Of a stretch of DNA of 64,000 bases, positions 2,859 through 46,700 are shown piece after piece (positions within the stretch are counted from its first letter, which is position 1; each line of letters begins with the position of its first letter). The notes beneath the pieces are model-generated. The model had not been told where the DNA came from and did no database searches. It was given only the letters and a program-made list of their open reading frames with translations. Made by a program: the position numbers and the translations under genes. The stretch comes from Enterobacter phage EspM4VN. The stretch is from sequence record LC373201.2. One strand, given 5' to 3'.

Positions 2859-4292
2859 TTGCCAATGTTACTCGAATCTGTCGTGCTTTCACAGTTGATT
2901 TACAATGAGCAGTACCAAAGAAAGATCCAGCCGTACCTGAAAGCCGATTATTTTGACAACGAAGGCGAAAAGGTCATCTTCGGCCTGATTGACAGTTACA
3001 CCTCAGAGTACAATGCGCGCCCGTCTATCGAAGCGCTGTCGATCATCCTTGAGCGCACCAAACTGAACGAACATGTGTTTGAGCAGTCTATTGCGGCGCT
3101 TGAGAACATCAACGACAACACCTTCAACGAAGAGTGGTTGGTCAAAGAAACAGAGGCATGGGCGCGTCAAAAGGCTGTACACAACGCGATTAAGACTGCC
3201 GTTAACATCTATGGTGACGAGAAACGCAAGGATGAGATGAACAACATCCCGACCTTGCTGCAGGAAGCCCTGGCGATACAGTTCGATTCGTATCTTGGCC
3301 ATATCTACTGGGAAATGGCTGAGCAGCAGTACGACCACATGAACTCCAACGAAGCCAAGATCCCGTTCGCGGTTGAGATATTCAACAAGGCCACCCGTGG
3401 TGGTGTTGGTAAGAAGACCCTGAACATCGTCACAGGTGCGATCAACGCAGGTAAGACAACAACGCTGATTGATCTGGCAGGTGGTTACTCTGAGCAGGGG
3501 CTGAACGTCTTTGTATTCACCCTCGAAGTGGCCGAGAACGTCTGGCGTCACCGCCTTGATGCCCGTATGATGCGTCGTGACTTTGAGTCCTTAGAGAAGC
3601 TCCCAAGGCACGAATACATCGCCACGATAGAGAAGCTCCGCAGTCGTCAAGATGGCGCACCCAAGGGCGATATCGTCATCAAGGAATATCCGTCTGGCGC
3701 TGGGCACACAGGTTTATTCCGTCGCGACATCCTTGAGTACATCCAAGCAACAGGCCGCGCCCCTGACGTCATCATCATTGACTACCTTGGTGAAGCTGCT
3801 TCCTCGCGCCTACCTGCTCATCTGATGCAGAACACGAACGTCTATTACACGTCTGTGGCTCGTGAGTTCCGTGCGCTGGGATTTGAGTTTGATGTTCCTG
3901 TATGGACGGGTATGCAGTTCAACCGTGAGACTCAGAACAGCACTGACGGGGGCATCAGTGATCTGGCGGATGCTATCGGTATCCCGAAGGTGGCGGATTT
4001 CATCATGGCGTTCTATGCTCCTGACGAACTGGCGGCGGTCAAGAAAGCCCGAGCCTCAATCCTCAAGAACCGTTATGCCAACAAACAGAAGCTCAAGTCG
4101 TTCCTGTTTGGTATGGACCAAGACAAACAGATCCTGTTTGACCTGGACTGGAATGAGGTGAAGAAGGATCTGTCCGAGGCCGAGGCGAAGTATGTTGAGA
4201 ACGTACACATCAAACATGATCTCAACAAGTCAGGTTCGGCGACGAGCGATGAGCAGAAAGCCCAGACCGTTAATTCTTGGAATTTCGGTTAA
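2859..4292 (+). CDS. 41: DnaB-like replicative DNA helicase (T4 gp41)
   Basis: Walker A GAINAGKTT, DnaB-family architecture, syntenic with uvsX as in T4. Confidence 0.9.
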   Translation: MPMLLESVVLSQLIYNEQYQRKIQPYLKADYFDNEGEKVIFGLIDSYTSEYNARPSIEALSIILERTKLNEHVFEQSIAALENINDNTFNEEWLVKETEAWARQKAVHNAIKTAVNIYGDEKRKDEMNNIPTLLQEALAIQFDSYLGHIYWEMAEQQYDHMNSNEAKIPFAVEIFNKATRGGVGKKTLNIVTGAINAGKTTTLIDLAGGYSEQGLNVFVFTLEVAENVWRHRLDARMMRRDFESLEKLPRHEYIATIEKLRSRQDGAPKGDIVIKEYPSGAGHTGLFRRDILEYIQATGRAPDVIIIDYLGEAASSRLPAHLMQNTNVYYTSVAREFRALGFEFDVPVWTGMQFNRETQNSTDGGISDLADAIGIPKVADFIMAFYAPDELAAVKKARASILKNRYANKQKLKSFLFGMDQDKQILFDLDWNEVKKDLSEAEAKYVENVHIKHDLNKSGSATSDEQKAQTVNSWNFG

Positions 4293-4333
4293 ATTCAATA
4301 TCGTGGGTCATAGGGTATAATTCTATGATCTGA

Positions 4334-4690
4334 ATGTTAAACCAGGAGCACATCATGTTACACAATGATTTTATGGCTGGCCTGGTGCAGGCCGCCAAAC
4401 AGGTGTGCCACACCAAACAAACGATTGAACTGAGTCCGGAGCAGACTCTGGAGTTCTTTAACAATCGTAAAATCTGGGAGGAATATGGTATTGGCATGAT
4501 CTGCCAAGAGGGTGAACTCGTACAGCTGGATCTGCCGTCATTCCCCCTTCCAGTGCGCACCAACACAGTGGAATGGTATACGACGGAAGATGGTGTCGAG
4601 ATCATCCCGAAGTTCCAGTATCACTCAATCGTAAACTTCTTTTTACGCCGTTGCGGGACTAACCTGATCCCACAAGGCATGAGATCTTAA
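4334..4690 (+). CDS. hypothetical protein
   Basis: 118-aa ORF with RBS-like AGGAG upstream. Confidence 0.35.
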   Translation: MLNQEHIMLHNDFMAGLVQAAKQVCHTKQTIELSPEQTLEFFNNRKIWEEYGIGMICQEGELVQLDLPSFPLPVRTNTVEWYTTEDGVEIIPKFQYHSIVNFFLRRCGTNLIPQGMRS

Positions 4691-4705
4691 CAAGAGGAAC
4701 ACCAA

Positions 4706-5020
4706 ATGTCTGTAGAACAAATCGGCTTTTATGCACTGCCGTCTGATCCTGAAACCCGTCGCAAGCTGATGGGCGCTATCGAAAACTGTCGCGCCGCTTC
4801 AGTTCGCATCAAGTCGGAGCAGACCTTTATCACTGAGACCCTGGCCGAGCTGGCGAAGGAAACGGGCATCAAGGCCGCCGACCTGCGCAAGGTTGTGACT
4901 GACCGCGCCAACGGCACCTACGCCAAGACGATCGAAACGAGCGAGAAGTATCAGGACCTCTACGAGTCCCTGTTCCCGAACGCCAAGCCTGATCGCGACC
5001 CAAATACAGACGCTGAATAA
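4706..5020 (+). CDS. hypothetical small acidic protein
   Basis: 104-aa ORF, GAGGAAC RBS, followed by a terminator. Confidence 0.4.
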   Translation: MSVEQIGFYALPSDPETRRKLMGAIENCRAASVRIKSEQTFITETLAELAKETGIKAADLRKVVTDRANGTYAKTIETSEKYQDLYESLFPNAKPDRDPNTDAE

Positions 5021-5038
5021 GTCAGCCGAACACCAAGA

Positions 5039-5064
5039 AGCCCAGTCAAGTACTGGGCTTTTTA
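5039..5064 (+). terminator. rho-independent terminator
   Basis: AGCCCAGT-caagt-ACTGGGCT hairpin followed by TTTTT. Confidence 0.7.
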
Positions 5065-5075
5065 ATTTCAATAAC

Positions 5076-5104
5076 TTTACTTTCAAGAATTAAGCGCCTA
5101 TCAT
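5076..5104 (+). promoter_or_regulatory. sigma70/T4-early-like promoter
   Basis: TTTACT, 17-bp spacer, TATCAT, directly downstream of the terminator and upstream of the 409-aa gene. Confidence 0.4.
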
Positions 5105-5135
5105 TTAATCTCTATTGAAGAGTTACAACTACATC

Positions 5136-6344
5136 ATGAGGCTGGAAATGAACGCCAAAACATTCAACATTCCGATCGACAATGAAGGGCTGGTAGTTGA
5201 GCGACTGAAGAAGCTCGAGCGCACTGCCGAAAGGCTGGGTGTCCCGTTCCCGACTGTGACTTATGGTGAACCCTTCAAGACCCACACCCGCGACACCACT
5301 GGTGAGATCCTTACTCACTGGTGGAAACCCGTCACCCTCGAAGGCGAAGGTATTGACCGCCCCGTTTCTTACGGTGGGTGGAAGATCATCGGACAGTTCA
5401 ATCACGAATACCCGAAGGTCATTCTTAACCGCCTGTCCGACAATATCAACGCTGACTTCATCCGTCGCTTCGAGACAGAGAACGTTTCTTGGTGCCAGCA
5501 TTGCAACCTGCTCATCAATCGCAAGAACACATATGTGATTGAAAACGAGGAAACGCATGCCCAGATGCTGATCGGTAGCACCTGCATGCATCATTATGTG
5601 CCTCATCAGAAGTCCCTCGACGCGATCATGTCTTACTATCTGGGGATCCAGGAATTCTTCATGCCGGACGAGGATGATCCAGAGGGTATCTACCGTGTCC
5701 GCAGTGAGCGCTTCGCCGACACCCACAATTACCTGCGCACATGCTTCCAGGTGATGCTGGCTGGCGTGGATATCAAGTCTGAACTGTTTGACAAAGTCTT
5801 GGGCTATGTCAGGTCTTACCAGAAACCAAAAGCAGGTTCCGATGAAGAGCATTTCGTAATCAAGGCGCACGAATACCGTGAAGACGCCGAGTCAGAAATG
5901 TACCATATGATGCTCTTCATCAGTGCGCTGTCTGAATCCAACGAGTTCAATGTTCGCCTGAAACGCATGTGTGAACCTGGCTATCACCTCATCAAGGATT
6001 CCAACACAGTCCGCTGGGGTGCCAAGAAGTATTACGACTACATTCACCGTCCTCGCACTGTCCGTAGAGGCGCGGAGAACAAGTGGGTGGCAGAAGTCGG
6101 CGAAATGCTGGAAGTGCAGGTCAGGTTTGACAAGCGCACCTTCCTCTTCTCCAACGAATACGGTGACAGCTATCTGTTCACTTTCAAAACAGCAGAAGGT
6201 AATACGATTACCTGGAAGACCTCGTATATGGATACAGAGTTCCTGCAGGGCGATATGATCATCCGTGGCCGTGTCAAAGAACTGACTGAGTACAACGGTG
6301 TTAAACAAACTCAGGTCACCCGAGCCAAATTGAGGAAGTTATGA
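5136..6344 (+). CDS. uncharacterised Zn-binding protein with C-terminal OB-fold-like domain, occupying the T4 primase (gp61) position
   Basis: CQHC(x24)CMHH cysteine/histidine cluster; beta-rich C-terminus LEVQVRFDKRTFLFSNEYGDSYLFTFK; no TOPRIM DxD found; ORF track starts at a TTG at 5115, ATG at 5136 more likely. Confidence 0.5.
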   Translation: MRLEMNAKTFNIPIDNEGLVVERLKKLERTAERLGVPFPTVTYGEPFKTHTRDTTGEILTHWWKPVTLEGEGIDRPVSYGGWKIIGQFNHEYPKVILNRLSDNINADFIRRFETENVSWCQHCNLLINRKNTYVIENEETHAQMLIGSTCMHHYVPHQKSLDAIMSYYLGIQEFFMPDEDDPEGIYRVRSERFADTHNYLRTCFQVMLAGVDIKSELFDKVLGYVRSYQKPKAGSDEEHFVIKAHEYREDAESEMYHMMLFISALSESNEFNVRLKRMCEPGYHLIKDSNTVRWGAKKYYDYIHRPRTVRRGAENKWVAEVGEMLEVQVRFDKRTFLFSNEYGDSYLFTFKTAEGNTITWKTSYMDTEFLQGDMIIRGRVKELTEYNGVKQTQVTRAKLRKL

Positions 6345-7277: not shown

Positions 7278-7886
7278 ATGTCACTGAAAAACTTACTGAA
7301 ACGCATCTTCACCACTGTTGAAGCCAACGTCACCACAGGTCTGGATAAACTGACCGACACCGAAAAGCGCCTGAACCTGGCTGCTCGCAAGCTGTCTGAC
7401 GAAATCCGTCGCCTGGAAGAAGCCCGTGTCACCAACGTTCGCAACGGTGTCAAGCTGAAGAAGACCGCCGAAGAGAACCTGGGTGAAGCTGCCAAGCGTG
7501 AACAGGTTCTGAAGGACGCTATCGCCCGTGGTGCAACCCCCGCTCGTGCAGAAGCCCTGATCGTCCTGCACCGCCGTCGTATCGGTGAAGCCCTGTTGGC
7601 TCAGGTGAAGGGCATCGAAGCGAGCAGCGACAAACTGAACGGCGCGATCATCCAGCTGGGCGACAAACTAGACGAAGTGAAGTCTAACCTCGAGCTGGTT
7701 CGTGTTCAGAAAGAGACCAACGACCTGGGTCTGGTGCTTCCTGAAGATATCGATTATGCCGCTGGTATGACCACCATCGATATCGATGCCATCCTGCGTG
7801 AAACCGAAATCGCTGATTCGAGCTACTCCGCCAACAGCCCGTCGTCTATCGAAGCTGACAACTACCTCGCCAGCCTGAGCAAATAA
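7278..7886 (+). CDS. PspA/IM30 (Vipp1) family coiled-coil protein
   Basis: N-terminus LKRIFTTVEANVTTGLDKLTDTEKRLNLAARKLSDEI parallels E. coli PspA [37 protein letters not shown]; about 150 aa of heptad coiled coil; extreme optimal-codon bias (ctg, cgt, gaa, aaa); GAGGA RBS. Confidence 0.6.
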   Translation: MSLKNLLKRIFTTVEANVTTGLDKLTDTEKRLNLAARKLSDEIRRLEEARVTNVRNGVKLKKTAEENLGEAAKREQVLKDAIARGATPARAEALIVLHRRRIGEALLAQVKGIEASSDKLNGAIIQLGDKLDEVKSNLELVRVQKETNDLGLVLPEDIDYAAGMTTIDIDAILRETEIADSSYSANSPSSIEADNYLASLSK

Positions 7887-7888
7887 CA

Positions 7889-8470
7889 TTGGAGGGGCAT
7901 AAGCCCCTCTATCACTTCGGGGATCTTATGATCATTCTTGACAAATACGACATCCTCGCGTACACCATACAAGCCATGGTAACGATCGGTACGATCCACT
8001 TTACCCTGAAATTTTTGCGTAGAAGAAAACGGAAATTCATATCCTACCGCAATCGCGTGGACATCCACACAATAATGCTGGATAGAACTTGCAAACACGG
8101 TCCCAGCGGTGACTTCCGTTTGTATTATGTGTCGGATGAAGTCACCCCTTCGGAATTCTTCAATTATGCGATGACTGGTTTGCGTTGGCCGGAGATAAAT
8201 GGCGTTGTTCAGAAAAACGATTACGTGTACGCGAATATGTCCTCTCTGAACAAGCATGGGGAACGTGACGATCTGCGGATGTGGTTCTTTGGAAGAGAGG
8301 AACAAAAAGGGTTCGTAAAAGAACTTGCTCTATTTCTTGAAGCATATGAAAGGGCTGGCTGCCCAGCGCTCGAGTTAGAAGAAACAGTGGAATCTATCGT
8401 GGCTCGCGCCCGTGGTGAAACCGTGGATCTACTGAACAAATATGGGTTTGTTTGGGCGGAGGGTTCATAA
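7889..8470 (+). CDS. hypothetical protein (AT-rich island)
   Basis: 193-aa ORF whose codon usage is clearly more AT-rich than flanking genes. Confidence 0.4.
   Translation: MEGHKPLYHFGDLMIILDKYDILAYTIQAMVTIGTIHFTLKFLRRRKRKFISYRNRVDIHTIMLDRTCKHGPSGDFRLYYVSDEVTPSEFFNYAMTGLRWPEINGVVQKNDYVYANMSSLNKHGERDDLRMWFFGREEQKGFVKELALFLEAYERAGCPALELEETVESIVARARGETVDLLNKYGFVWAEGS
7893..7910 (+). terminator. stem-loop terminator after the PspA-like gene
   Basis: GAGGGGC-ataa-GCCCCTC hairpin; weak U tract. Confidence 0.45.
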
Positions 8471-17749: not shown

Positions 17750-18157
17750 TCAGTCGTCCAGTTGATCGTAGATCTTCTGACGGAACGCATTACCGCCAGC
17801 ACAACCCGTGGCCAGCAGGCGAGTACCACCCGTGCCGATCACGCTGATGGTAGAGAAGCCCAGGATGCGGCCTGTGATGGACTGATCGACCTTCACTGTC
17901 TCTACCTTACCGATGCGCAGTTCGTCGGCATCACGACGGATGAACCCGCGCTTGACGATGACACGCTTGTTGGTCACAGCGAATTCAGTGGTCAACACGT
18001 TCAACACAGTCGGGATCAGGAACAGCAGACTGACGCCGAAGGTTGGCACAAACAGCAGAACAACCAACACATACATCCAGAAGCCGCTCCACCAAGTCGG
18101 GCGGGTGAAGGCAATAACTTGCTCGTCTTTGCCGAGCATACGATCTACATAACGCAT
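17750..18157 (-). CDS. membrane protein with bacterial PH (bPH/YdbT-like) domain
   Basis: Two N-terminal TM helices (WWSGFWMYVLVVLLFVPTFGVSLLFLIPTVL) followed by a FAVTNKRVIVKRGFIRRDADELRIGKVETV fold typical of DUF304/bPH_2. Confidence 0.45.
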   Translation of the reverse strand: MRYVDRMLGKDEQVIAFTRPTWWSGFWMYVLVVLLFVPTFGVSLLFLIPTVLNVLTTEFAVTNKRVIVKRGFIRRDADELRIGKVETVKVDQSITGRILGFSTISVIGTGGTRLLATGCAGGNAFRQKIYDQLDD

Positions 18158-33318: not shown

Positions 33319-34881
33319 TTACTTGTACAGGCCTGTCACATCAATAGACTTGTGCTGACGGTTGTACTCAGCCGTGTAATCATCCATCACCATGTATTCA
33401 CAGCAGCGGATTTTACTGGAGCCGTAATCGTTGGTGATAGAAACGATGTCACGTGGGTTCAGCTTACAGCGAACGACACGTTGGCCCACAGAACCGAAAC
33501 ACTCCTTCAGGTAGGCCAGGGAGCACACATGCAGACCGTACGAACACAGGTCGGTGTTGTTGTCGTTAACGAATGAGCGAGCCATACGCACGATGGTGCC
33601 GGGAGCGTTGCTGATCGTGTTGCTGTGCTTGTCCATGTAGTTGCCGCGCACGGATTTATAGAGGATGATGTCACCATCTTCATGAATCTCGATGTCGGAG
33701 TACGCCATGAACTCATAAATGCGCCCAGACTGAACCAGAGCAGCCGACGGGTTCTGGAACATTTTGTCCATGAACTTCGCCATACGTTCCAGATTGTCGA
33801 AATCACCTTTCAGCATCAGAGCCAGAACACGCTTGGCGATAGACGTGCCTGTGATGTCGTGGCCAGACCAGCGAACACGGTTGTCGGTCACTTCCACCAG
33901 ACCAGCAGCATACTTCGCGATGGCATCACGAGGACGCATCAGGGAGTAAGCCAGCTTCACGTCTTGGTCTTTGATCGCCTGAACGATGCGGTCATAGGCC
34001 GGATGAGAGGTGGTGATCGTTTCCGGCTTACCATCAATCGCGATGACAACGCTTTCCGGTAGAATCAGAATCTGGTGTTCGTTCAGGAACACATCCAAGT
34101 CTTTCGCGCCGAAGTCCTGCTTGGTCTTCTTGTCACCAGCCACTTCTTCAACATCTTTGATGACGACGGTGAATTCTACAGAAGACAGAGCCAGGCGCAG
34201 AGTGCGGCCGAGGATGGCATCGAAGTAACCAACACGGCGACGGGCATCCAAGGATCCACGGATAGGATAGGTTTCCCCGTCAACCACAACGCCGATTTCA
34301 ACGTTGCTTGGAACTTTGTCCGCACCTTCTGACAACGCCACAGAAATTTCTGCCATCTTGCCGATAGCTTCAACATTAAAAGCACGGCTGTTGCCTTCCA
34401 CTGCAGTCAGTTCAGACTTTTCAAAGAAAGCGCCTGTGAAATTGCCGTCGTTGGTGAGACACAGATACTTGTTGTGGTTCGGTAGATATGCCCCAACATA
34501 CCATTCTGAGTCCTCTTTGTCTTTGGCTGTCCCACCCGGCTGGACTTCGAATACTTTCTGCTCTTCCGGTTTGATAGGAGAGATCACAGTTACCTTGTTT
34601 TCCTCCTCGGTAATGCGGACCAGCAGAGCGCGAGCAATGGTCTTGGCACTGACGCTGAATGCTTCAGCCAGGGCGCGATTGCTCTCACCAGCCTTACTCT
34701 TCACCTGAATCTGCTGGATGTCTTCGGTAGACAGGGATTTCAGCGACAATGGATTGACGCCGAGTTCCGTGTCTGCAACACGTTGTACAGTCGAGCGGGG
34801 TATGCCCAACAGAGTAGCAATTGCGCTCTGGCTGGCGCCTGCCTTCAAATGCTTGAGGATCTTTTCATCAATCTTGTTCAT
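33319..34881 (-). CDS. rIIB: rIIB-like protein
   Basis: Directly downstream of and co-oriented with rIIA; N-terminal helix-turn-helix-like segments; start taken at MNKIDEKILKH. Confidence 0.45.
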   Translation of the reverse strand: MNKIDEKILKHLKAGASQSAIATLLGIPRSTVQRVADTELGVNPLSLKSLSTEDIQQIQVKSKAGESNRALAEAFSVSAKTIARALLVRITEEENKVTVISPIKPEEQKVFEVQPGGTAKDKEDSEWYVGAYLPNHNKYLCLTNDGNFTGAFFEKSELTAVEGNSRAFNVEAIGKMAEISVALSEGADKVPSNVEIGVVVDGETYPIRGSLDARRRVGYFDAILGRTLRLALSSVEFTVVIKDVEEVAGDKKTKQDFGAKDLDVFLNEHQILILPESVVIAIDGKPETITTSHPAYDRIVQAIKDQDVKLAYSLMRPRDAIAKYAAGLVEVTDNRVRWSGHDITGTSIAKRVLALMLKGDFDNLERMAKFMDKMFQNPSAALVQSGRIYEFMAYSDIEIHEDGDIILYKSVRGNYMDKHSNTISNAPGTIVRMARSFVNDNNTDLCSYGLHVCSLAYLKECFGSVGQRVVRCKLNPRDIVSITNDYGSSKIRCCEYMVMDDYTAEYNRQHKSIDVTGLYK

Positions 34882-34912
34882 CTTGTAGTTCCCACGTTGG
34901 TTAACAGGACTA

Positions 34913-37669
34913 TTATGCCCTGACAATGGAATTTGAAATAACGTCCAAGTAATCCGAAGAATTTTCAATCGGGTTCAGGGCGCTTGGTTTGTAGTTCTCT
35001 TTCAAGAACCGAATAACACGGTGTCGCTCGATGGTCAATCGATTGTCCCGCCTTGCCTTTAATGTCGGCGTCCGCGCAATATCGAATCGTGTAAACCCAT
35101 GTGTTTGCAGGGCATCCGAAGCGTATCCAAAGATCTGCAACATCTGGTGTTCTGAACGGAATATCTTTTCGTCGCGCTCGTTACTGTACAAATTCACGTT
35201 AAGAGAACTTATCGTGTCTTGGAAATGACTAAAACGACGTTTATCATGGATCGACACTGGGACTTTTGCCATGCTTTGATAATGGCGCACAGTCTGCTCA
35301 TCTAAGATGTCGTCCACAACTCTCATTAACTTGTTGTAACGTTTGACCAATTTGCCATAACGATCGTCTTCAACAACACCGAACGCCTGTTCAACCAGAT
35401 GGATCCCATATTTCAATCGGTCAGCCCCAAGTCGCATACGGCGGTATGATTCCAGTATGCGCCTGGCGCTATCGCGCTCCATCATAGGCTTCACGTTTTC
35501 CAACATGATCTTCAGAATTTCATCGATCGGGATGAAGACTTCTGGGAACTTCTTCATCATCGGAACCGATTTACGACGAGCCAAGAATATTCTGTCGTGA
35601 ATGTTCAGCATATCTTTGATGTACACAGGCTTGCCATCTTCATCCGCGTGAACGGCATGTTTGTACAGAGCCTCGCGGATGCCTCGCGCCGCAGCTGTGG
35701 TCAACGTTCTATCCATCACCTGGTGGATACACTCGTGGCCAGACACCTCAATGTAGACGATGCGCTCGCCCTTATTGATGATGTCAGAGATTTGTTCACC
35801 AGTCAGTTCTTCGTATTGGCGAATATCAAAATCACTTCTTGTGAACGGAAACAAACCAGGATCTTTGGTGACCGGAGGCGTGACATATGTCAGTTCATTC
35901 ATGAACTTGACTTCAGCAGGCTCCAGCACCGCACCCAACCAATCCATGAACTTGTCGGCGAAGAACAGATAATCGATCGTCGTTTCTTCTTCGCCAATCC
36001 AGGACTTGAAGAAGTCATGAAGTTCTTGGGCATTCCTGAACGCAGGGTTGTCCTTAGACTGGTTGCGCTTGGTGACATAAGAAGTGTTCGGTTTGGCCAC
36101 GATGACCATCGTCCCTGTATCTTTCAGTTGCTTGATCTTCAGGTTACGAGCACGGACACTGTCTTCTACAACCACAGTAACATGTTGACCGCGATCAATC
36201 CACTTCTGGATTTCTGAAATGGTCAAAGTACTGGACTCACCCCAGTCATAGAAGATCTCCATGGAGAACGGCGATGACAATTCATTGAACGGAGCGGTGT
36301 GGTCGTAGTCGCGGTCGATCTCAACAGGCAGCGGGTAACGGTAATATGAATCATGGAAGCGCTTGTCTGCCGGATATTCCTTTTCAACCATCTTGCGGAA
36401 CCCGCTGCCGAACATTTCGCTCAGTTTCGCCTTCTCCATATAGAGAGCAAGAGGACCGCGCTTACACGCCATCTCCAGGTCACGCATTTTATCCGTCAGG
36501 ATTGCATTGGCGGTCTCTTTAAACTCCTCAGAGAGCGTCTCACGCGTAAATTCGTCATATGAGAGGTCTTCACGTGATGGCGGTACGTTCAGGGAACCGA
36601 GTTCGAAGAACGTATAGGACGACGGAAACTTGCTCATGATGGAGGAAGTGTCTGGGTCCAGCTGATCCAGGTCAATCGGGTACGACACGCCACCCATCAC
36701 AGCGTAATGGGTGTGGTCGTTGCCCTTCGGCTGGATGTACGTGTTGTTGACCTTGAAATCGTAGCTGATGTCTTCCCAGCCGAAACGGTATGAAGCGTTC
36801 TCAACAACTGGACGTTGTTCAGGGCGCATGACACGACCAAGACGGACCAGTTCATCGGAGAACGCAGAGAAGCGAGCGTTCTTCACTGGGATCTTCACCG
36901 TCATGCCGTTGAATTCATCGGTGTCTTCCGGCTTAGGATCACGGGTTTCAAGATCTTTGGTGATCAGATCGACCGTTGGGATGCGCTTGGCGTTCAGGTA
37001 CATCAGGAAGCGATGGAGTTTGCCGTCCATGCGGCTTTCCACAGTGAACGAATCCGATACCGCAAATGGTGATTTTGAACCAAGGCCGAACGCCCCGATC
37101 TGATCATCGTCTTCTTCCTTCGTACTGTGGAAGAGTGTCGTGTACAGGCCGGGTGAACGGATGATCTCGCCATCTTCACGGCGGAACACCAGAGACCCAT
37201 TGTAGAACCCTGGGACGCCGATGACTTCAGCCGAGTCAGGGATCTCGTCTTCCTTCACGACCATGTTGCCTTCCAACAGCACTTCGTCTTCTTGGGCTGG
37301 GATGGCTTCGCCAATGATCTTCTCAAGCGGCAGGCCGATACCGTAATCACGGATTTCCAGCCATGGCTCAAAGTCGTCAGGTAGATGCACGACAACTCGT
37401 GTGCCCTTCGGTGCAAGGTATTTGCCGTGACGGGCAGGAGGGGGAGTGAGAGGCGCGTAGTGGGATGCTACCATACGGTGCATACGATCACGCATGCCAT
37501 GGGAGTCGATGGCGTTACAGGTGGTTTCACGCAGGGCTGCTGCCTCTTTGTAACGATATAATGATGAGAACAGAGTCTCAAACATCTTGTCGTTCATTTT
37601 GACGTTAAACGCCTGCCCCTGAATGGAAGACGACGAGCGGATAAAGTGCTCGGACTTGCGCATTTTCAT
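34913..37669 (-). CDS. rIIA: rIIA protein
   Basis: GHKL-type N-box RETTCNAIDSHGM and FGLGSKSPF match T4 rIIA RELITNMIDAH and GGFGLGSKSPF; 918 aa. Confidence 0.8.
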   Translation of the reverse strand: MKMRKSEHFIRSSSSIQGQAFNVKMNDKMFETLFSSLYRYKEAAALRETTCNAIDSHGMRDRMHRMVASHYAPLTPPPARHGKYLAPKGTRVVVHLPDDFEPWLEIRDYGIGLPLEKIIGEAIPAQEDEVLLEGNMVVKEDEIPDSAEVIGVPGFYNGSLVFRREDGEIIRSPGLYTTLFHSTKEEDDDQIGAFGLGSKSPFAVSDSFTVESRMDGKLHRFLMYLNAKRIPTVDLITKDLETRDPKPEDTDEFNGMTVKIPVKNARFSAFSDELVRLGRVMRPEQRPVVENASYRFGWEDISYDFKVNNTYIQPKGNDHTHYAVMGGVSYPIDLDQLDPDTSSIMSKFPSSYTFFELGSLNVPPSREDLSYDEFTRETLSEEFKETANAILTDKMRDLEMACKRGPLALYMEKAKLSEMFGSGFRKMVEKEYPADKRFHDSYYRYPLPVEIDRDYDHTAPFNELSSPFSMEIFYDWGESSTLTISEIQKWIDRGQHVTVVVEDSVRARNLKIKQLKDTGTMVIVAKPNTSYVTKRNQSKDNPAFRNAQELHDFFKSWIGEEETTIDYLFFADKFMDWLGAVLEPAEVKFMNELTYVTPPVTKDPGLFPFTRSDFDIRQYEELTGEQISDIINKGERIVYIEVSGHECIHQVMDRTLTTAAARGIREALYKHAVHADEDGKPVYIKDMLNIHDRIFLARRKSVPMMKKFPEVFIPIDEILKIMLENVKPMMERDSARRILESYRRMRLGADRLKYGIHLVEQAFGVVEDDRYGKLVKRYNKLMRVVDDILDEQTVRHYQSMAKVPVSIHDKRRFSHFQDTISSLNVNLYSNERDEKIFRSEHQMLQIFGYASDALQTHGFTRFDIARTPTLKARRDNRLTIERHRVIRFLKENYKPSALNPIENSSDYLDVISNSIVRA

Positions 37670-39521: not shown

Positions 39522-39527
39522 GAAAAA

Positions 39528-39559
39528 GGGGATAGAGCAATAATACCCTATCCCCTTTT
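39528..39559 (-). terminator. rho-independent terminator for the minus-strand transcript
   Basis: GGGGATAG-(12 nt)-CTATCCCC perfect stem flanked by an A run and a T run. Confidence 0.6.
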
Positions 39560-39571
39560 ATTGAAGAACGA

Positions 39572-40036
39572 TTAGACTTCAGAGTCGGTTTCTTTTGCGA
39601 TCTGTGTCGTAAGGTCATTAGACCAACGACGCATGTCTAAAACGGGCTTTCCGTTAGGTGCCATGATGTAGATGGTATTGATCGTCTCAAACCAAGACAG
39701 TTCTTCAACCCCTTTAGTGTAAGGAGTTACAGGTACGGAAGTCTTCACATCCTTGCCCTTTACACCAGGATGGGTTTCCGCCAGCCTTAACAGGGCACAG
39801 CGACCAGCTTGGTCTATAACGCCCTCTTCGAACATCACGATCTTCTTGCGAGGATGATTGGCTTCACCCAGGCACACCACCAGATGATGGATCATCTCCG
39901 GACGGTTGATCAACGTGTCGTCACGGATGATCCCCTGCTTAACAGCGGAGATCACCACTTCGTCCAACAGCGCCTGCTGCTGGTCCAGCGTCAGTGATTC
40001 AGTAAGTTTCAGTGCCATTATTCGTACCCCAGGCAT
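39572..40036 (-). CDS. hypothetical protein
   Basis: 154-aa ORF. Confidence 0.35.
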   Translation of the reverse strand: MPGVRIMALKLTESLTLDQQQALLDEVVISAVKQGIIRDDTLINRPEMIHHLVVCLGEANHPRKKIVMFEEGVIDQAGRCALLRLAETHPGVKGKDVKTSVPVTPYTKGVEELSWFETINTIYIMAPNGKPVLDMRRWSNDLTTQIAKETDSEV

Positions 40037-40150: not shown

Positions 40151-40720
40151 TCAGCCTTTGAAGTTGATCGGTTTCTGAACCCCAGCGTCAAACGCGGCCT
40201 GGGTACGGGTATCGCTCACCACCTGACAGGTCTTATCAAGATCGATGCGCGGGTAGCCAAACATGCCAGCAATCAACGAACCAGGGAACTGAGCCAGCTT
40301 GGTCTCGTACATCGCGCAGATGTCCAGCTTCTTGGTCTGGCTGATGCGGAATTCATCACGCCCAGAACTGATCACCACCTGGATCTCTTTGTACAGGCTG
40401 GAATCAAACTGAATGTTCTGCTCCTGGATCCACTGCATGACAGCCTTGGAACCATCAGCGCCATAACGCCCTTCGAACGTACCTTTGATCACTTCCTTCA
40501 GGCCGTCTTTGTACATGTCAGGAATCTGCGCCGTCTCCTGAACTTTGAGCGTGTAGTTGCTCAGGTAGTTCTCGGAGTCTTTGTTGAACTTCTTGACCTG
40601 CTGCTCAGTGCGGTTGAAGTCGTTGAAGTAGCTGATGACAGTGCCGATGCCGACAACAACAGCAGCCAGTAAAGCCAAACCAACGATCCAACCTGTTGCA
40701 ATACCCTTAGATTGAGACAT
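40151..40720 (-). CDS. LemA-family membrane protein
   Basis: N-terminal TM helix, then the LemA-like core, ending in FPGSLIAGMFGY (LemA FPxNxxAxxFGF motif). Confidence 0.55.
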   Translation of the reverse strand: MSQSKGIATGWIVGLALLAAVVVGIGTVISYFNDFNRTEQQVKKFNKDSENYLSNYTLKVQETAQIPDMYKDGLKEVIKGTFEGRYGADGSKAVMQWIQEQNIQFDSSLYKEIQVVISSGRDEFRISQTKKLDICAMYETKLAQFPGSLIAGMFGYPRIDLDKTCQVVSDTRTQAAFDAGVQKPINFKG

Positions 40721-40739
40721 TCTTTACTTCCTCTTTTGA

Positions 40740-41855
40740 TTAAAAATTAAACGGATAACGACGACGGCCACCATTGTACTCCATTCGCTGCAATATGAAA
40801 ATTGCGGTGAACGGCAGACAGCCCAGCAGAACAACAATCACAACTTCCCAGGTCTTGAGTTCCCGCCACTTCAGGTACTCCATTTCCTTCATCTCAACCC
40901 GGTTGTAACCTTTGGTGATGTTGGCAACAACGTCTGCCATGACGCCGATACCCATATCATGCCCGGTCAGGTCCATACCGTTGCGGGAGTGGAGTTCACG
41001 GTTGTGCATACCATCAGCGAACGAAGTGCTCTTACCCCAATTGATCTTCAGGTCTTTGCTGATATCGGTCACGACGATAACGTCGTTCTTTTTACCGCCA
41101 TCCCAAGCATAGACCAAGCCCTGGAAGTATTCAACTGGCTGACCGGAAGTCACAACCCAGACGATATTCACCTGCTTGGCTGCGCCCAGCTTCTTCAGGA
41201 CATCGTTCAGATAGTCGTTCCAGTATGTGGTCGGCAACGCCAGACCAGACACGTTCAGGACACGAGTGACACGATAATAGTCATAGACTTCAGGATACTT
41301 CGGAATCTTGTCTTTGAAGCGCTCGGCAAACTGCTGGTCTGAGCGAGAGAACAGAGAGTCCTTGTTGCCCAGCACATAGTTCATGTAGGAATGCTCACGG
41401 GCTGCGGGTTCGCCGATCTGAACCTGCGCCCAGCGCGGCGGCTGACCAAGACCACGGCGGTCGATACGGTCGATTGTCAGGTTGCCAACAGTCGTCAGCA
41501 CATCCCAATCCACGTCGTATGAATGCTCATAGCAGGTACTACAATGGCGGGTACGGGTGCAGGACTTGCTGCTACCGGAGCCGGAGCATGATGTGGTGTA
41601 ATAGCAGTTGCATTGATACGAGTGCTCACAGCTTACCTTATTCCGCTCCTTTGCAGTGACGTACCCGTTCAGGATCTCAACATCCCCTGAACTGCCGAGG
41701 GAGAACGCCGCATAAGCCCCGGCCTGAATCAGACATGACAACACCACTACAATCGCCGTTGCGCCCAAGGTCTCTTTCGGCTCATGGGTCTTGCGGTGGT
41801 AGACCACAAACAGGATGGCCAGTATCAATGGCACACCAAACAGGAGGTAGATCAT
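40740..41855 (-). CDS. two-TM membrane protein with Cys-rich module and C-terminal TPM-like (DUF477) domain
   Basis: N- and C-terminal TM helices; CEHSYQCNCYYTTSCSGSGSSKSCTRTRHCSTCYEHSY cluster; KNDVIVVTDISKDLKINWGKS resembles the TPM motif nGVLLLVaxxDRkvRIevGyG; start overlaps the LemA-side neighbour. Confidence 0.4.
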   Translation of the reverse strand: MIYLLFGVPLILAILFVVYHRKTHEPKETLGATAIVVVLSCLIQAGAYAAFSLGSSGDVEILNGYVTAKERNKVSCEHSYQCNCYYTTSCSGSGSSKSCTRTRHCSTCYEHSYDVDWDVLTTVGNLTIDRIDRRGLGQPPRWAQVQIGEPAAREHSYMNYVLGNKDSLFSRSDQQFAERFKDKIPKYPEVYDYYRVTRVLNVSGLALPTTYWNDYLNDVLKKLGAAKQVNIVWVVTSGQPVEYFQGLVYAWDGGKKNDVIVVTDISKDLKINWGKSTSFADGMHNRELHSRNGMDLTGHDMGIGVMADVVANITKGYNRVEMKEMEYLKWRELKTWEVVIVVLLGCLPFTAIFILQRMEYNGGRRRYPFNF

Positions 41856-42328
41856 AACACACCGTCCACGAGTTGAGCCTTGGACATCCCAAGGAGTTGA
41901 TTTCTGTGGGCAGTATGCGCTCCATTTCTTTTCAACAACACCCAGCGTTCATCATGATATTTGGGATCCAGGGCTTCATCAAAAGAAACATGATGAGTAA
42001 ACATAATCGCAGCTACTGAATGAAGAACATGTGCCGTAGCCCTTTTCAAAGCGCGATCACTAACGATCTGATCTTCATATTCAAGACCCATGAGATCCAG
42101 TTCTTTGAAAATATATGCAAAGGACAATTCACCCTGAGAATACATACGAACAATGGCATCCTTTTTAGGATGAAGAGTACCATCTGTTTCTTTCATGAAC
42201 AGATCATACAGATACTGCTTGTATTCAGACTTTGTCATCTTGTACGCCCTCCAACACAGATGATGTTCAGTTCGCCACGGGCAAATCCACTCTTGCCGGA
42301 GGTTTTGTTGCCGTTCAGCATTTTCCAC
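41852..42328 (-). CDS. hypothetical protein
   Basis: 158-aa ORF. Confidence 0.35.
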   Translation of the reverse strand: MENAERQQNLRQEWICPWRTEHHLCWRAYKMTKSEYKQYLYDLFMKETDGTLHPKKDAIVRMYSQGELSFAYIFKELDLMGLEYEDQIVSDRALKRATAHVLHSVAAIMFTHHVSFDEALDPKYHDERWVLLKRNGAHTAHRNQLLGMSKAQLVDGVL

Positions 42329-42470: not shown

Positions 42471-42504
42471 TTGCAAAAGAAAGGGGAACGGGCTAATATT
42501 AACC
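42471..42504 (-). terminator. stem-loop terminator
   Basis: GGGGAACGGG-ctaatattaa-CCCATTCCCC, one mismatch, T tract follows. Confidence 0.45.
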
Positions 42505-42540
42505 CATTCCCCTTTATTGAAGAACGCAATCGCAGTCAGA

Positions 42541-42744: not shown

Positions 42745-43980
42745 TCAGCGTTTCAAGAGTGCCATGAGGTTGACGCTGTTGGACTTCGGCTTTTCCTCAA
42801 CCTTGCGTACAGGCATCTTCAGGTTTGTACAGACCTCGGATGGTTCCCAGCGCGTACCCTTTTGCAGGTGCCAAATGTGTAGAGGGATACCAGTCTCAAA
42901 GAACACAGGCATCTTCCACTTCTGGACGCCTGGAACGTGCCCTGCAGGAGCCTTTTCGCACAACAGGGTATCTGGTAGCCAGAGTGATCGGGCTTCCCAG
43001 AGCGCTGCACAGGAGTACTCCGGCCAGATGCGTTCCATGTAGTCGATCTCATCCCAGGTACGCTCGGCATCCCACCCAATGTAACGGGTGTTCTTCTCGC
43101 GGAAGAACTTCTTCAGCCAACAGGCACCTGAGGTCTCAAAGTTCAGGCGGTTGATGAACGTCAGATGCCCGAACTCAGCCACGCAATCCTGGAACGCCTG
43201 TTCAAGGTCGGCCTCAAGGATATCACACTCTTCATCCGTGATAGGACAACCGTTGATCTTTTTCTTCCCGTGCTTAGTCACCCAGTCGTCACGGTTGGAC
43301 AAGAACGCCGCGCCGTTGCGGTTGGACTCACTACCATCGCGGTCACGCAGCATGAAACCGGGGACGTCGATATCCCACATGTTACCGAAGACCATGTTCA
43401 AGGCTTCCAGGAAGTTCCAGGCGCTCAGGCGGCCGAAGTATTTCCAGGACATCGCCGTTTCCCACAACTTAGTGAACTGGTCGCCTTGGGGCTTGGTCTC
43501 CAACATCGGTCGGAATGCTTCCATCTGGGAGCGCCCAGCCAGCCAGTCGATGTAAGACTGAACACATGGAATCATCTTGGACTTGCGGTAGCGGCAGTCG
43601 GTATCGAAGCGCATGCGATCAAAGTTCAGGTTGTACCAATCAGAGAAGCGCTGCATCTCTTCCTTAGACTGAGGAGGCACAGGGAACTCACTGTAGATCG
43701 TCCATGGACCGATGGCGTTATAGCAGCAGCCCCAAAGGAACGACATCCAGATCTTGCGCTCGACCTTCTCAAGCTGTGTGATGCCTTCAGTGACTTCGAT
43801 GGCATAGTCCATCAGACGCATCTGCTGGTTGTGCTCTTCGGTGTAGGACAGCGCCTCCACCCAAGCCTTGAGCAGGTACATGCGATTCTCAGGCTTGCGA
43901 TAGTCAACAGCCAGGTCAATCGGGTACTTCCATTCAGCCGGAGGCGTATAGCCCGTCGGCATTTTAGATAGATGGGTCAT
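42745..43980 (-). CDS. uncharacterised 411-aa enzyme; candidate DNA base-modification transferase
   Basis: Large, Trp/Cys-rich; sits with a P-loop kinase and a 5'-nucleotidase downstream of DNA polymerase, where T4 has hydroxymethylase and glucosyltransferase; no motif confirmed by eye. Confidence 0.3.
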   Translation of the reverse strand: MTHLSKMPTGYTPPAEWKYPIDLAVDYRKPENRMYLLKAWVEALSYTEEHNQQMRLMDYAIEVTEGITQLEKVERKIWMSFLWGCCYNAIGPWTIYSEFPVPPQSKEEMQRFSDWYNLNFDRMRFDTDCRYRKSKMIPCVQSYIDWLAGRSQMEAFRPMLETKPQGDQFTKLWETAMSWKYFGRLSAWNFLEALNMVFGNMWDIDVPGFMLRDRDGSESNRNGAAFLSNRDDWVTKHGKKKINGCPITDEECDILEADLEQAFQDCVAEFGHLTFINRLNFETSGACWLKKFFREKNTRYIGWDAERTWDEIDYMERIWPEYSCAALWEARSLWLPDTLLCEKAPAGHVPGVQKWKMPVFFETGIPLHIWHLQKGTRWEPSEVCTNLKMPVRKVEEKPKSNSVNLMALLKR

Positions 43981-44651: not shown

Positions 44652-44716
44652 ATTGAAACGGCTGCCATAATCAGGCCGATGAACAACAGATAATTAGACA
44701 ACCGTTTCATGATCAC
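44513..44716 (-). CDS. small membrane protein
   Basis: 67 aa, two TM helices. Confidence 0.3.
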   Translation of the reverse strand: MIMKRLSNYLLFIGLIMAAVSMCAGLAYHFTPLDLTTSEKLNVTVMYCIGAVMSIGAAGYKIFKEPK

Positions 44717-45627
44717 CCCTTCTTCATCAGGTCAAGGAGAGAGCGCGACGCTGCCTTCGGTGCTTCTGGCTCGGCACTCGCCTTGGTTTTAGTTTTGGAT
44801 GCCTTCTGCGGCTTCTCAGGCACTCTGTGCGCCAAAGGATCCTGCCCACCGACCTCACGGGTCATTGGGTTGGTCTCACAGAAAGCATAGAAGTCTTTGC
44901 TGTAAAACCCATACGCTCGAGTTTCGTCCAATTGATGGTGGATAGCATTACCAACCACCCACAAAGGAGCATCGAACGGAAGGATAGCCACTTCTGAATT
45001 TGTCGGTGATTTGAACTCCTGGGTGTTGGTTTCCGGCGCTTTGTACAGAATGTCCTGCCCGCTGTAATTGTCTACCACAGGGGTGAAGCCCAGCGCCAGC
45101 ATTTCGGCCTTCGACTTCTCAAACTCCTTGGAGTAAGATTCGTTGCGTGACCAGCCAGAGTCCCCTGCTTCCTTACCAGAGCGCCCACGGATACGCGCAT
45201 CGTACTGGTAGCGGTCAGGGTATGCAAAGTACAGCAGCGCCAGAGATTCAATCGGATAGTTCTTGAACATCCATTCAGGACGCCATTTGTCCGACAACAT
45301 GAGGGGTTCACCCTCACAGACCAGGGTATACCCCTGAGCCAGCCAGCCTTTGACCAGATCACGAGCGATGTCACCGGATCCTGTGGCGGCATGAACGCCG
45401 TCCATAGAAGTCCATGAAGCCAGACCGGACTTGTTGGACACAGTGTACTGGCCGACGAAGATTAACTTCAGCTCTTCGAATTTCAGGCCAAACGGGCGCG
45501 TCTTGTCGCCGATAGTGTAGGTCAGTTCGGTAGGCTCCAGCTTCGTACGGAGCCATTCGATGAACTGTACGACACGAGTGCCTTTACCCGTGCCGGAGGT
45601 TCCTTTGATTACGATGATCTTTGCCAT
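44713..45627 (-). CDS. P-loop kinase (nucleotide or polynucleotide 5'-kinase family; candidate modified-base DNA kinase)
   Basis: Walker A GTSGTGKGT at the N-terminus; 304 aa; Lys/Ala/Pro-rich C-terminal tail. Confidence 0.5.
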   Translation of the reverse strand: MAKIIVIKGTSGTGKGTRVVQFIEWLRTKLEPTELTYTIGDKTRPFGLKFEELKLIFVGQYTVSNKSGLASWTSMDGVHAATGSGDIARDLVKGWLAQGYTLVCEGEPLMLSDKWRPEWMFKNYPIESLALLYFAYPDRYQYDARIRGRSGKEAGDSGWSRNESYSKEFEKSKAEMLALGFTPVVDNYSGQDILYKAPETNTQEFKSPTNSEVAILPFDAPLWVVGNAIHHQLDETRAYGFYSKDFYAFCETNPMTREVGGQDPLAHRVPEKPQKASKTKTKASAEPEAPKAASRSLLDLMKKG

Positions 45628-45941: not shown

Positions 45942-46700
45942 CTATCGGACGTATTGATAATGACCAATCAAGCGGTTCACCACTTCAACAATATTGTGAT
46001 TCAGGAAGTCGAAGTGGTTCTGGCCTTCTACTGGTTTAATATAAAGCATATCTTCCGAGTTCGAAAGATCCAGTTTTTCATAATTGCCCTGAGGAACAAA
46101 GATGACGAAGATGTTGTTCAGGCCGCATGGCTCGACATACTTCGGATTGTCATCAATCAGGACATCGCCAGCCAGCAGGTGCTTTTCGTCGGTGCTGACA
46201 AACCCGTTGAAGATGCCTGGGAACTTGTCGTAGACAAACTGGCGCTTGCTGCGCTCGTGTTCCGGCTCGCACTTAGACACTGCGATGAATTCAACATTGT
46301 CAAAGTCTTCGAGCAGAATCTTCTTCAGATTCACTAAGAACTCGTAAGCACCAGGGAGCGGGTTCATCTTGGCATACAGGTCAGGGCGACGCCACCAGTC
46401 CATAGGATCGTTACCGCTCGGCACACGTTGTTTGTGCAGCCCCAATTGGACTTCACGGTACAGCCACGCCGGATGCGCACGTTCGCGCATCAGGATAGCC
46501 AGGTCGCCAGCATGGGCCATATAGCACTCTTTGGTGATCGGCTGGAATGGCGCTGGTCCATGACCGTCATAGTGCTTGGACACGCTGAGGTTGTCTTCGT
46601 TGAACCACTGTACCCAAGGGAGAGGCTATCAACCAGCGTCAGGTCAACATCCACGAGGACGCGATACAGACCACCGACCTTTGATTTCATATCATAGAGG
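45942..46700 (-). CDS. HAD-family 5'(3')-deoxyribonucleotidase-like protein, frame interrupted near 46630-46640
   Basis: MKSKVGGLYRVLVDVDLTLVDS (DxDxT) in one frame continues as LPWVQWFNEDNL...GHGPAPF in the next; junction ctcccttggg. Confidence 0.5.

Follow-up and report, generated by a model that had tools for sequence, protein, structure and literature searches.

A LemA-like and TPM-like membrane protein pair in Enterobacter phage EspM4VN, probably a phage-adapted form of a bacterial two-gene module

Enterobacter phage EspM4VN (sequence record LC373201.2) carries two adjacent minus-strand genes for membrane proteins of 371 and 189 residues at positions 40151-41855 of the 64,000-nucleotide stretch of DNA that we analysed (the window, to which all coordinates refer unless another record is named). 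We consider it probable that the two genes are a version, adapted to phages, of the membrane module that bacterial LemA and TPM genes form, and that their products act on the host envelope. The smaller protein is a remote homologue of LemA, as judged from profile comparisons, and the larger one is predicted to contain a domain with the TPM fold.

The gene for the TPM-like membrane protein of 371 residues (ORF at 40740..41855, minus strand; ORF, open reading frame) is the upstream member of the pair and stops in TAA. It is followed by a spacer of 19 nucleotides (40721..40739), in which a GAGGAAG ribosome-binding site can be read, and then by the ATG of the gene for the LemA-like protein of 189 residues (ORF at 40151..40720, minus strand). 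An earlier note on this DNA had given the coordinates and sizes of both co-oriented ORFs exactly, but had described them as overlapping, whereas the spacer separates them. The sole overlap at the locus is an ATGA shared by the 371-residue gene and the ORF upstream of it. Homologues of each protein number in the hundreds, with E-values down to 1e-247 for the 371-residue protein and 1e-117 for the 189-residue protein; as coding sequences, both ORFs are far beyond chance. The idea of one frameshifted gene was rejected: each ORF has its own start codon, a ribosome-binding site precedes the second, and nearly all relatives have two separate genes.

The relationship of the 189-residue protein to LemA emerges when families rather than single sequences are compared. 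Alignment of 61 phage proteins with 34 canonical LemA sequences in hhalign gave a probability of 96.5% (E 8.5e-10, 146 columns). With the profile of the 61-member family as query against PDB sequences, the top match was the LemA structure 2etd (E 0.0039); query residues 30-158 align with residues 10-155 of the chain, which is nearly the whole soluble domain, membrane helix excluded. Of the 61 phage members, 48 scored higher with a hidden Markov model (HMM) of canonical LemA than any of 1,220 shuffled decoys. In architecture, too, the protein matches LemA: a length of 189 residues (about 185-195 in LemA), one N-terminal membrane helix (about residues 9-31, nucleotides 40628-40696, minus strand, by hydropathy), an all-helical domain, and the C-terminal motif FPGSLIAGMFGY at residues 145-156, which follows the LemA-type pattern FP....A..FG[FY]. 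Both the single helix and the C-terminal motif had been recognised in the earlier note. This motif is variable in other members of the phage family, which has an invariant motif of its own, GRYGADGSKAVMQWIQEQN. The AlphaFold model is all-helical (predicted local distance difference test score, pLDDT, 83.8), and fold searches with it were uninformative, as is common for helical bundles. Among PHROG families the protein matches phrog_1383 (E 1.6e-86). We name it 'LemA-like' because the homology is supported at the profile level but membership by Pfam's own cut-off is not reached; the family assignment of the earlier note holds in the first sense and fails in the second.

The 371-residue protein begins with two membrane helices, continues with a Cys/His-rich beta domain and a TPM-fold domain, and ends in a further membrane helix with a short tail rich in Arg. 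By hydropathy, residues 1-54 (41694..41855, minus strand) hold two hydrophobic helices at about 1-20 and 28-54, joined by the basic loop HRKTHEPKE, and the C-terminal helix spans residues 335-358 (40782..40853, minus strand), followed by the basic tail RMEYNGGRRRYPFNF. The AlphaFold2 (AF2) model of the protein (pLDDT 91.7) places these helices at residues 7-20, 26-54 and 335-361. There are therefore three hydrophobic segments, and not one transmembrane helix at each end as had been supposed. Residues from about 185 to 333 (40857..41303, minus strand) adopt in the model the alpha/beta/alpha sandwich of solved TPM domains, with the conserved motifs YDYY, KQVNI and W-GGKKND. PF04536 is the only Pfam family that recurs among relatives of the protein, with weak matches in 11 of 66 (best E 1.8e-4). 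The predicted structure thus shows a TPM-fold domain with membrane helices before and after it as anchors. The resemblance of the C-terminal region to TPM/DUF477 that the earlier note proposed is borne out by the fold and by these weak matches in relatives, but not by any Pfam match of the 371-residue protein itself. Sequence identity to the solved TPM domains (AtTLP18.3, 3pw9; Psb32, 8c7i; BA41, 5anp; Rhom172_1776, 7tbr; PG0361, 2kw7; cg2496, 2kpt; mycobacterial AscF, 6adq_J) is just 10-16%, and, unlike them, the phage domain is joined to a new beta domain and lies between membrane helices.

This beta domain (residues 55-160; 41376..41693, minus strand) is modelled as a beta-rich ectodomain of long hairpins. 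It has many invariant polar residues, including D58, G64, K69, W117, G135, P139, R141 and N159, and has no match among solved structures. The Cys-rich segment CEHSYQCNCYYTTSCSGSGSSKSCTRTRHCSTCYEHSY lies within it at residues 76-113 (41517..41630, minus strand), where the earlier note had located it. The segment contains seven Cys and three His (H78, H104 and H111); the nine Cys attributed to it are the count for the whole protein, in which two Cys are in membrane helices. Nor is it an unusual insert, since the Cys-rich part is conserved across the family: in 66 diverse relatives C76, H78, C82, C90, C99, C108 and H111 are near-invariant, H78 and H111 being the two near-invariant His of the segment.

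Two pairs of Cys, C84/C105 and C90/C99, oppose each other across the 80-91/98-108 hairpin. Over the 66 relatives, both members of C84/C105 are present in 54 sequences, neither in 11 and a single one in 1; for C90/C99 the corresponding counts are 60, 3 and 3. On a neighbour-joining tree the state of C84/C105 changes at least six times and that of C90/C99 at least five times. The two pairs are probably disulfides. C76, H78 and H111 are found in or beside two turns at the same end of the sheet, and the lone conserved Cys76 together with His78 and His111 could form a metal-binding or catalytic site.

The distribution of charged residues suggests how the proteins are oriented in the membrane. In the loop that joins helices 1 and 2 of the 371-residue protein, the 66 relatives have on average 2.2 Lys and Arg residues; the average is 0.2 ahead of helix 1, 0.65 past helix 2 and 2.3 in the first 15 residues after helix 3. 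We infer that the helix 1-2 loop and the C-terminal tail are cytoplasmic; because Lys and Arg concentrate in these two places, residues 55-334 would be periplasmic. The joint gain and loss of the partners in C84/C105 and in C90/C99, as disulfides would show it, also indicates an oxidising compartment for the beta domain. In the LemA-like protein the charge bias is weakly in favour of N-in, C-out; in its family, 34 sequences have both C135 and C165, 27 have neither, and none has only one. A JGI metagenome contig encodes, at positions 1012-2673, a 553-residue head-to-tail fusion of the TPM-like and LemA-like proteins (one cluster member, one contig), with a short linker that resembles a translated intergenic spacer. 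Such a fusion, if real, requires that both soluble domains are on the same side of the membrane. Taken together, these features suggest that both soluble domains face the periplasm.

The arrangement recalls that of bacterial LemA and TPM genes. In bacteria, as represented by Thermotoga (TM0961, PDB 2etd), the two genes are likewise adjacent and co-oriented, and the TPM-fold gene of the phage is immediately upstream of the 189-residue gene. We found a canonical LemA gene followed by a PF04536 TPM gene, with overlapping stop and start codons (translationally coupled), in both Thermotoga and Neobacillus; the statement in the earlier note that LemA-TPM is a conserved bacterial gene pair is thus upheld in two distant phyla. 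Bacterial LemA has, like the phage protein, about 190 residues, one membrane helix, a helical domain and the C-terminal FP....A..FG[FY] pattern. The bacterial LemA-linked TPM proteins consist of a signal peptide or membrane helix, a TPM domain, a C-terminal membrane helix and a Gly/Arg-rich tail, and they share with the phage protein the membrane anchoring and the C-terminal helix with its tail (GGRRRY in the phage). There are also pronounced differences. The phage has the TPM-like gene first and a spacer between the genes, whereas the bacteria have LemA first and overlapping stop and start codons. The phage TPM-like protein has two N-terminal membrane helices in place of a signal peptide or single helix, and it alone contains the extra Cys/His-rich beta domain of about 105 residues. 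Finally, the phage proteins are too divergent for the Pfam cut-offs, and the LemA-like family is set apart by its own invariant motif.

The phage pair is widespread rather than exotic. A tblastn search returned 485 phage records for the TPM-like protein and 500 for the LemA-like protein, and the genus counts of the two sets are nearly the same; the earlier note had suggested looking for the pair in related phages, and it occurs, in the order TPM-like, then LemA-like, in about 485-500 phage genomes. Carriers include Ackermannviridae, Aeromonas T4-like phages, jumbo phages of Erwinia, Escherichia, Klebsiella and Cronobacter, the Vibrio phage ICP1, Acinetobacter Saclayvirus, Xanthomonas and Sinorhizobium phages, and phages of roughly 105-120 kb, which we take to be T5-like. 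Order and adjacency are the same in ICP1 and in an Acinetobacter Saclayvirus, while the genes on either side are of unrelated kinds (the neighbours in the Saclayvirus include ribonucleotide reductase and thymidylate synthase). An exhaustive profile search with the 371-residue family returned 2,139 representatives among clusters at 50% identity, nearly all of 345-390 residues. In assemblies of bacteria and metagenome-assembled genomes (MAGs), the LemA-like gene adjoins the TPM-like gene in 20 of 26 related loci, immediately downstream in 19 and in reversed order in one; two of the other six loci end at a contig edge. Because most of these loci are short MAG contigs, the family looks essentially viral. 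A few database records label the phage protein 'LemA', and a literature search on LemA with TPM, phage, Ackermannviridae, virion or PspA returned no description of a phage LemA-TPM module.

Some occurrences deserve separate mention. In ICP1 isolate 2017_DRC_32 the pair (3989-5582 of that genome) is inside a block of eight genes that do not have the legacy 'GPxx' names of the flanking genes, which suggests that in ICP1 it is an accessory cassette of some isolates only. The pair is also present on large contigs of the isolates Achromobacter anxifer LMG 26857, where it adjoins a RecA gene and many ORFs of no assigned function, and Variovorax sp. WDL1, as well as on contigs assigned by binning to Saccharibacteria, Paceibacterota and further bacteria of the candidate phyla radiation. 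All these loci may represent prophages, phage contigs that were binned wrongly, or phages that infect the bacteria concerned.

We propose that the LemA-like and TPM-like proteins form one inner-membrane complex, which would be made during infection and would act on the host envelope without being built into the virion. Its most likely role would be to preserve the integrity and the energised state of the inner membrane and periplasmic face of the infected cell up to lysis. We favour such a maintenance role by analogy: TPM domains act in membrane complexes as adapters or assembly factors (PMC13456599), the TPM protein YdjH is a conserved partner of PspA in Firmicutes (PMC11237479), and a Flavobacterium mutant under membrane stress induces both lemA and a TPM gene (PMC13236525). 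A bolder form of the proposal, which we put forward tentatively, is that of a pan-phage, periplasm-facing LemA-TPM complex in which a metal-binding or catalytic centre of Cys76, His78 and His111 in the extra beta domain senses, or modifies chemically, a universal envelope component of diderm hosts.

Several observations weigh against the interpretation as an adapted LemA-TPM module. The 189-residue protein scores 13.8 bits against the PF04011 cut-off of 26.2 (E 0.053, residues 125-158 only), and the weak PF04011 matches in 9 of the 61 family members (best E 0.0016) are all below it. The 371-residue protein has no Pfam match, with none to PF04536 even at an E-value of 1, so the profile check by PF04011 and PF04536 that the earlier note suggested leaves both proteins short of the cut-offs. 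Profile searches of PDB sequences, with the whole 371-residue family and with its TPM part separately, matched no TPM chain, and the TPM link therefore rests on the fold and the weak Pfam matches. Comparison of the family with four LemA-linked bacterial TPM proteins in hhalign gave a probability of 9%, the bacterial alignment being shallow; even so, KQVNIV...W.GGKKNDV is aligned with the equivalent TPM motif. With regard to topology, the state of C135/C165 in the LemA-like family changes once on the tree and counts as a single event, and the 553-residue fusion may be real or may reflect read-through or a lost stop codon. PADLOC returned no defence match; a marginal hit to LeoBC (E 7e-4, 16.7 bits) covers residues 9-112 of the LemA-like protein, with the membrane helix and the beginning of the helical domain. 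Lastly, the analogy yields little mechanism, because the bacterial LemA-TPM module is itself uncharacterised.

The nearest alternative is superinfection exclusion, in which a periplasm-facing complex blocks DNA entry or cell-wall penetration by later phages. T4 Imm and Sp exclude superinfecting phages from the inner membrane, and, like RI and RIII, they are small inner-membrane proteins of a virulent phage that act in or from the periplasm. The analogy with these T4 proteins is functional only, as early phage membrane proteins that alter the host envelope; no sequence or fold relationship to the pair was found in Pfam, PHROG or fold comparisons. Exclusion would suit two small inner-membrane proteins with putative periplasmic domains that are encoded among early or middle genes and found in many virulent phages, and the ICP1 block without legacy GP numbers hints at an accessory trait. 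We nevertheless regard it as unlikely: the matched PHROG families bear no exclusion annotation, and the pair is very highly conserved across phages with unrelated receptors and injection machines (Ackermannviridae, jumbo, T5-like, ICP1, Saclayvirus), so that a universal envelope target fits better than a phage-specific block. The proximity of rIIA/rIIB, a few genes away on the same strand (2.5 kb), raises another alternative, namely that the pair senses the state of the envelope or periplasm and modulates the holin or lysis inhibition. Lysis inhibition in T4 likewise works through periplasmic domains of small inner-membrane proteins. However, the vicinity of the rII genes is specific to Ackermannviridae, with other neighbours in ICP1 and Saclayvirus, the pair has its own terminator-bounded unit, and Pfam and PHROG revealed no similarity to holins or antiholins; control of lysis timing is in our view very unlikely.

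The pair could instead be a periplasmic enzyme, with the TPM domain and/or the Cys76-His78-His111 centre hydrolysing or modifying an envelope component, for example a phosphorylated lipid carrier, a nucleotide or peptidoglycan, and the LemA-like protein as its membrane partner. Some TPM proteins, though not all, bind Ca2+ or Mg2+ and show phosphatase or ATPase activity (PMC13456599), and the phage protein has both a dense set of invariant polar residues (C76, H78, H111, D114, D116, R130, R133, R141, N159, D192, N257 and D258) and a lone near-invariant Cys beside a His. Yet the activities of TPM proteins are weak or disputed, several of them being non-catalytic adapters (PMC13456599), and the beta domain matches no known enzyme fold, which leaves an enzymatic role rather improbable. 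That the proteins are parts of the virion is what the databases say: phrog_1383 and many RefSeq records of Ackermannviridae are labelled 'virion structural protein', and an Erwinia jumbo phage record has 'putative structural protein'. The virion proteome of Dickeya phage LIMEstone1 speaks against these labels. ORF194 of LIMEstone1 is the TPM-like homologue (98.7% identical) and ORF195 the LemA-like homologue (97.9% in close Limestonevirus relatives), and both are absent from the 39 virion proteins identified by mass spectrometry in this one close relative (PMC3296691, Table 2). In addition, the architecture is that of an integral membrane protein and the genes are outside the structural gene clusters. 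The label 'major capsid protein' in Pectobacterium phage DU_PP_V (MF979564.1, 39878-40348) sits on a LemA-like protein of 195 residues and is implausible. We consider a structural role in the virion highly improbable.

The earlier note had joined the pair to a PspA homologue in a single module. The PspA/IM30 homologue is real: its gene (7278-7886, plus strand) matches PF04012 with an E-value of 1.1e-11 (45.2 bits against a cut-off of 33.9), and the protein is a homologue of T4 e.6. The connection with the pair does not hold up: 32 kb separate the pair from the pspA gene, which is encoded on the other strand in a different transcription unit and has a different spread among phages. The linkage to pspA by which the phage shock protein (PSP) system is recognised is thus not found. 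PspA-like proteins occur in 249 phage records, mostly of Ackermannviridae and T4-like phages, including Enterobacter and Citrobacter phages of 170-180 kb. Judged from the genera listed for each record set, Enterobacter and Citrobacter are outside the ten most frequent genera for the pair, each appearing at least once, and the jumbo, roughly 105-120 kb, ICP1 and Saclayvirus phages that carry the pair are not among the genera listed for the PspA-like gene. A comparable bacterial set is the pspA (ydjF)-ydjG-ydjH operon of Bacillus subtilis, in which the membrane-associated TPM protein YdjH is found with the Cys-rich zinc-ribbon membrane protein YdjG and PspA (PMC11237479); the phage also encodes PspA/IM30. 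No LemA is reported for the ydj operon, however, and its genes are together, in contrast to the distant phage pspA gene. We claim no homology between the Cys-rich beta domain of the phage and the zinc ribbons of YdjG. Downstream of the phage pspA gene, where an ORF lies at 7889-8470 (plus strand), are ORFs that are annotated as membrane proteins in Salmonella phage SKML-39. Phage-encoded PspA homologues seem little discussed.

Over 2.9 kb around the pair, DNA identity to SKML-39, Shigella phage Ag3 and LIMEstone1 is 88-91%. By this similarity EspM4VN is a large virulent phage of the Ackermannviridae, close to Agtrevirus and Limestonevirus, and the description of the carrier as a virulent phage is correct. 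Upstream of the pair on the same strand are genes for a DNA polymerase, a 5-hydroxymethyldeoxyuridine (5-hmdU) DNA kinase and an amino-acid:DNA transferase (thymidine hypermodification); downstream, also on the same strand, are rIIA (34913-37669), 2.5 kb from the pair, and rIIB (33319-34968). Its gene content marks the region as one of non-structural genes of the early or middle class. The thymidine-hypermodification genes, of a kind typical of ViI-like phages, are at 42745-43980, 44713-45627 and 45942-46583 (all minus strand), with matches to amino-acid:DNA transferase (PF18724, E 4.5e-61), 5-hmdU DNA kinase 2 (PF18747, E 2.3e-158) and an NT5C-like nucleotidase. The N-terminal 115 residues of the rIIB homologue (33319-34968, minus strand) match helix-turn-helix families of Pfam (HTH_38, E 3.9e-11; HTH_23, E 5e-9), which is unexpected for a protein usually described as membrane-associated. 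Elsewhere in the window, 17750-18157 (minus strand) encodes a further membrane-associated phage protein, of small size, in which a bacterial PH domain is recognised (bPH_2, E 2.1e-12); its label in SKML-39 is 'membrane-flanked domain'.

The pair belongs to a minus-strand unit of five genes, with ORFs of 74, about 128, 371, 189 and 154 residues and terminators on both sides. The upstream boundary is a hairpin with U-run at 42480..42526 (minus strand; folding free energy, dG, -25.8 kcal/mol, z -6.6), and the downstream boundary is a second such terminator at 39527..39570 (minus strand; dG -24.3 kcal/mol, z -7.1). The 20-nucleotide motif CGTTCTTCAATAAAGGGGAA precedes the upstream hairpin and recurs at the downstream terminator; the window contains exactly two copies, at 39551-39570 and 42507-42526 (minus strand), where none is expected by chance. 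The annotation of LIMEstone1 has terminators at the equivalent places on both sides of the unit. The two elements, each of about 50 nucleotides, bracket the five genes exactly and consist of the motif CGTTCTTCAATAAA(A)GGGGA, a strong hairpin and a U-run. Their stems differ yet remain paired, and their loops hold the -10-like sequences TATTAT or TAATAT.

The upstream neighbour of the pair (41852..42238, minus strand; phrog_5047) was listed as an ORF of 158 residues with a GTG start (41852-42328, minus strand). The phrog_5047 match spans residues 31-158 and the SKML-39 homologue is annotated with 387 nucleotides; the protein probably starts at the internal ATG at 42238 and has 128 residues. It has no similarity to the genes upstream of the pair in ICP1 or Saclayvirus. 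The downstream neighbour, of 154 residues (39572..40036, minus strand; phrog_4236), has no match in Pfam and no counterpart beside the pair in ICP1 or Saclayvirus. A third conserved component of the module was accordingly rejected, as the flanking neighbours are not conserved outside Ackermannviridae.

LemA and TPM proteins are widespread bacterial membrane proteins, often encoded side by side. The phages have a strongly conserved version of their own, in which the gene order is reversed, a Cys/His-rich domain is added and periplasmic disulfides are probable. The database labels 'virion structural protein' and 'major capsid protein' need correcting, being unsupported at least by the LIMEstone1 virion proteome. 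The spread of the pair points to a common interest of large virulent phages of Gram-negative hosts in manipulating the inner membrane and periplasmic face of the host, and deletion and expression genetics in phages could reveal the role of the module. If a pan-phage LemA-TPM complex does exist, the tractable Ackermannviridae, T5-like phages and ICP1 would give a first experimental handle on the bacterial LemA-TPM module.

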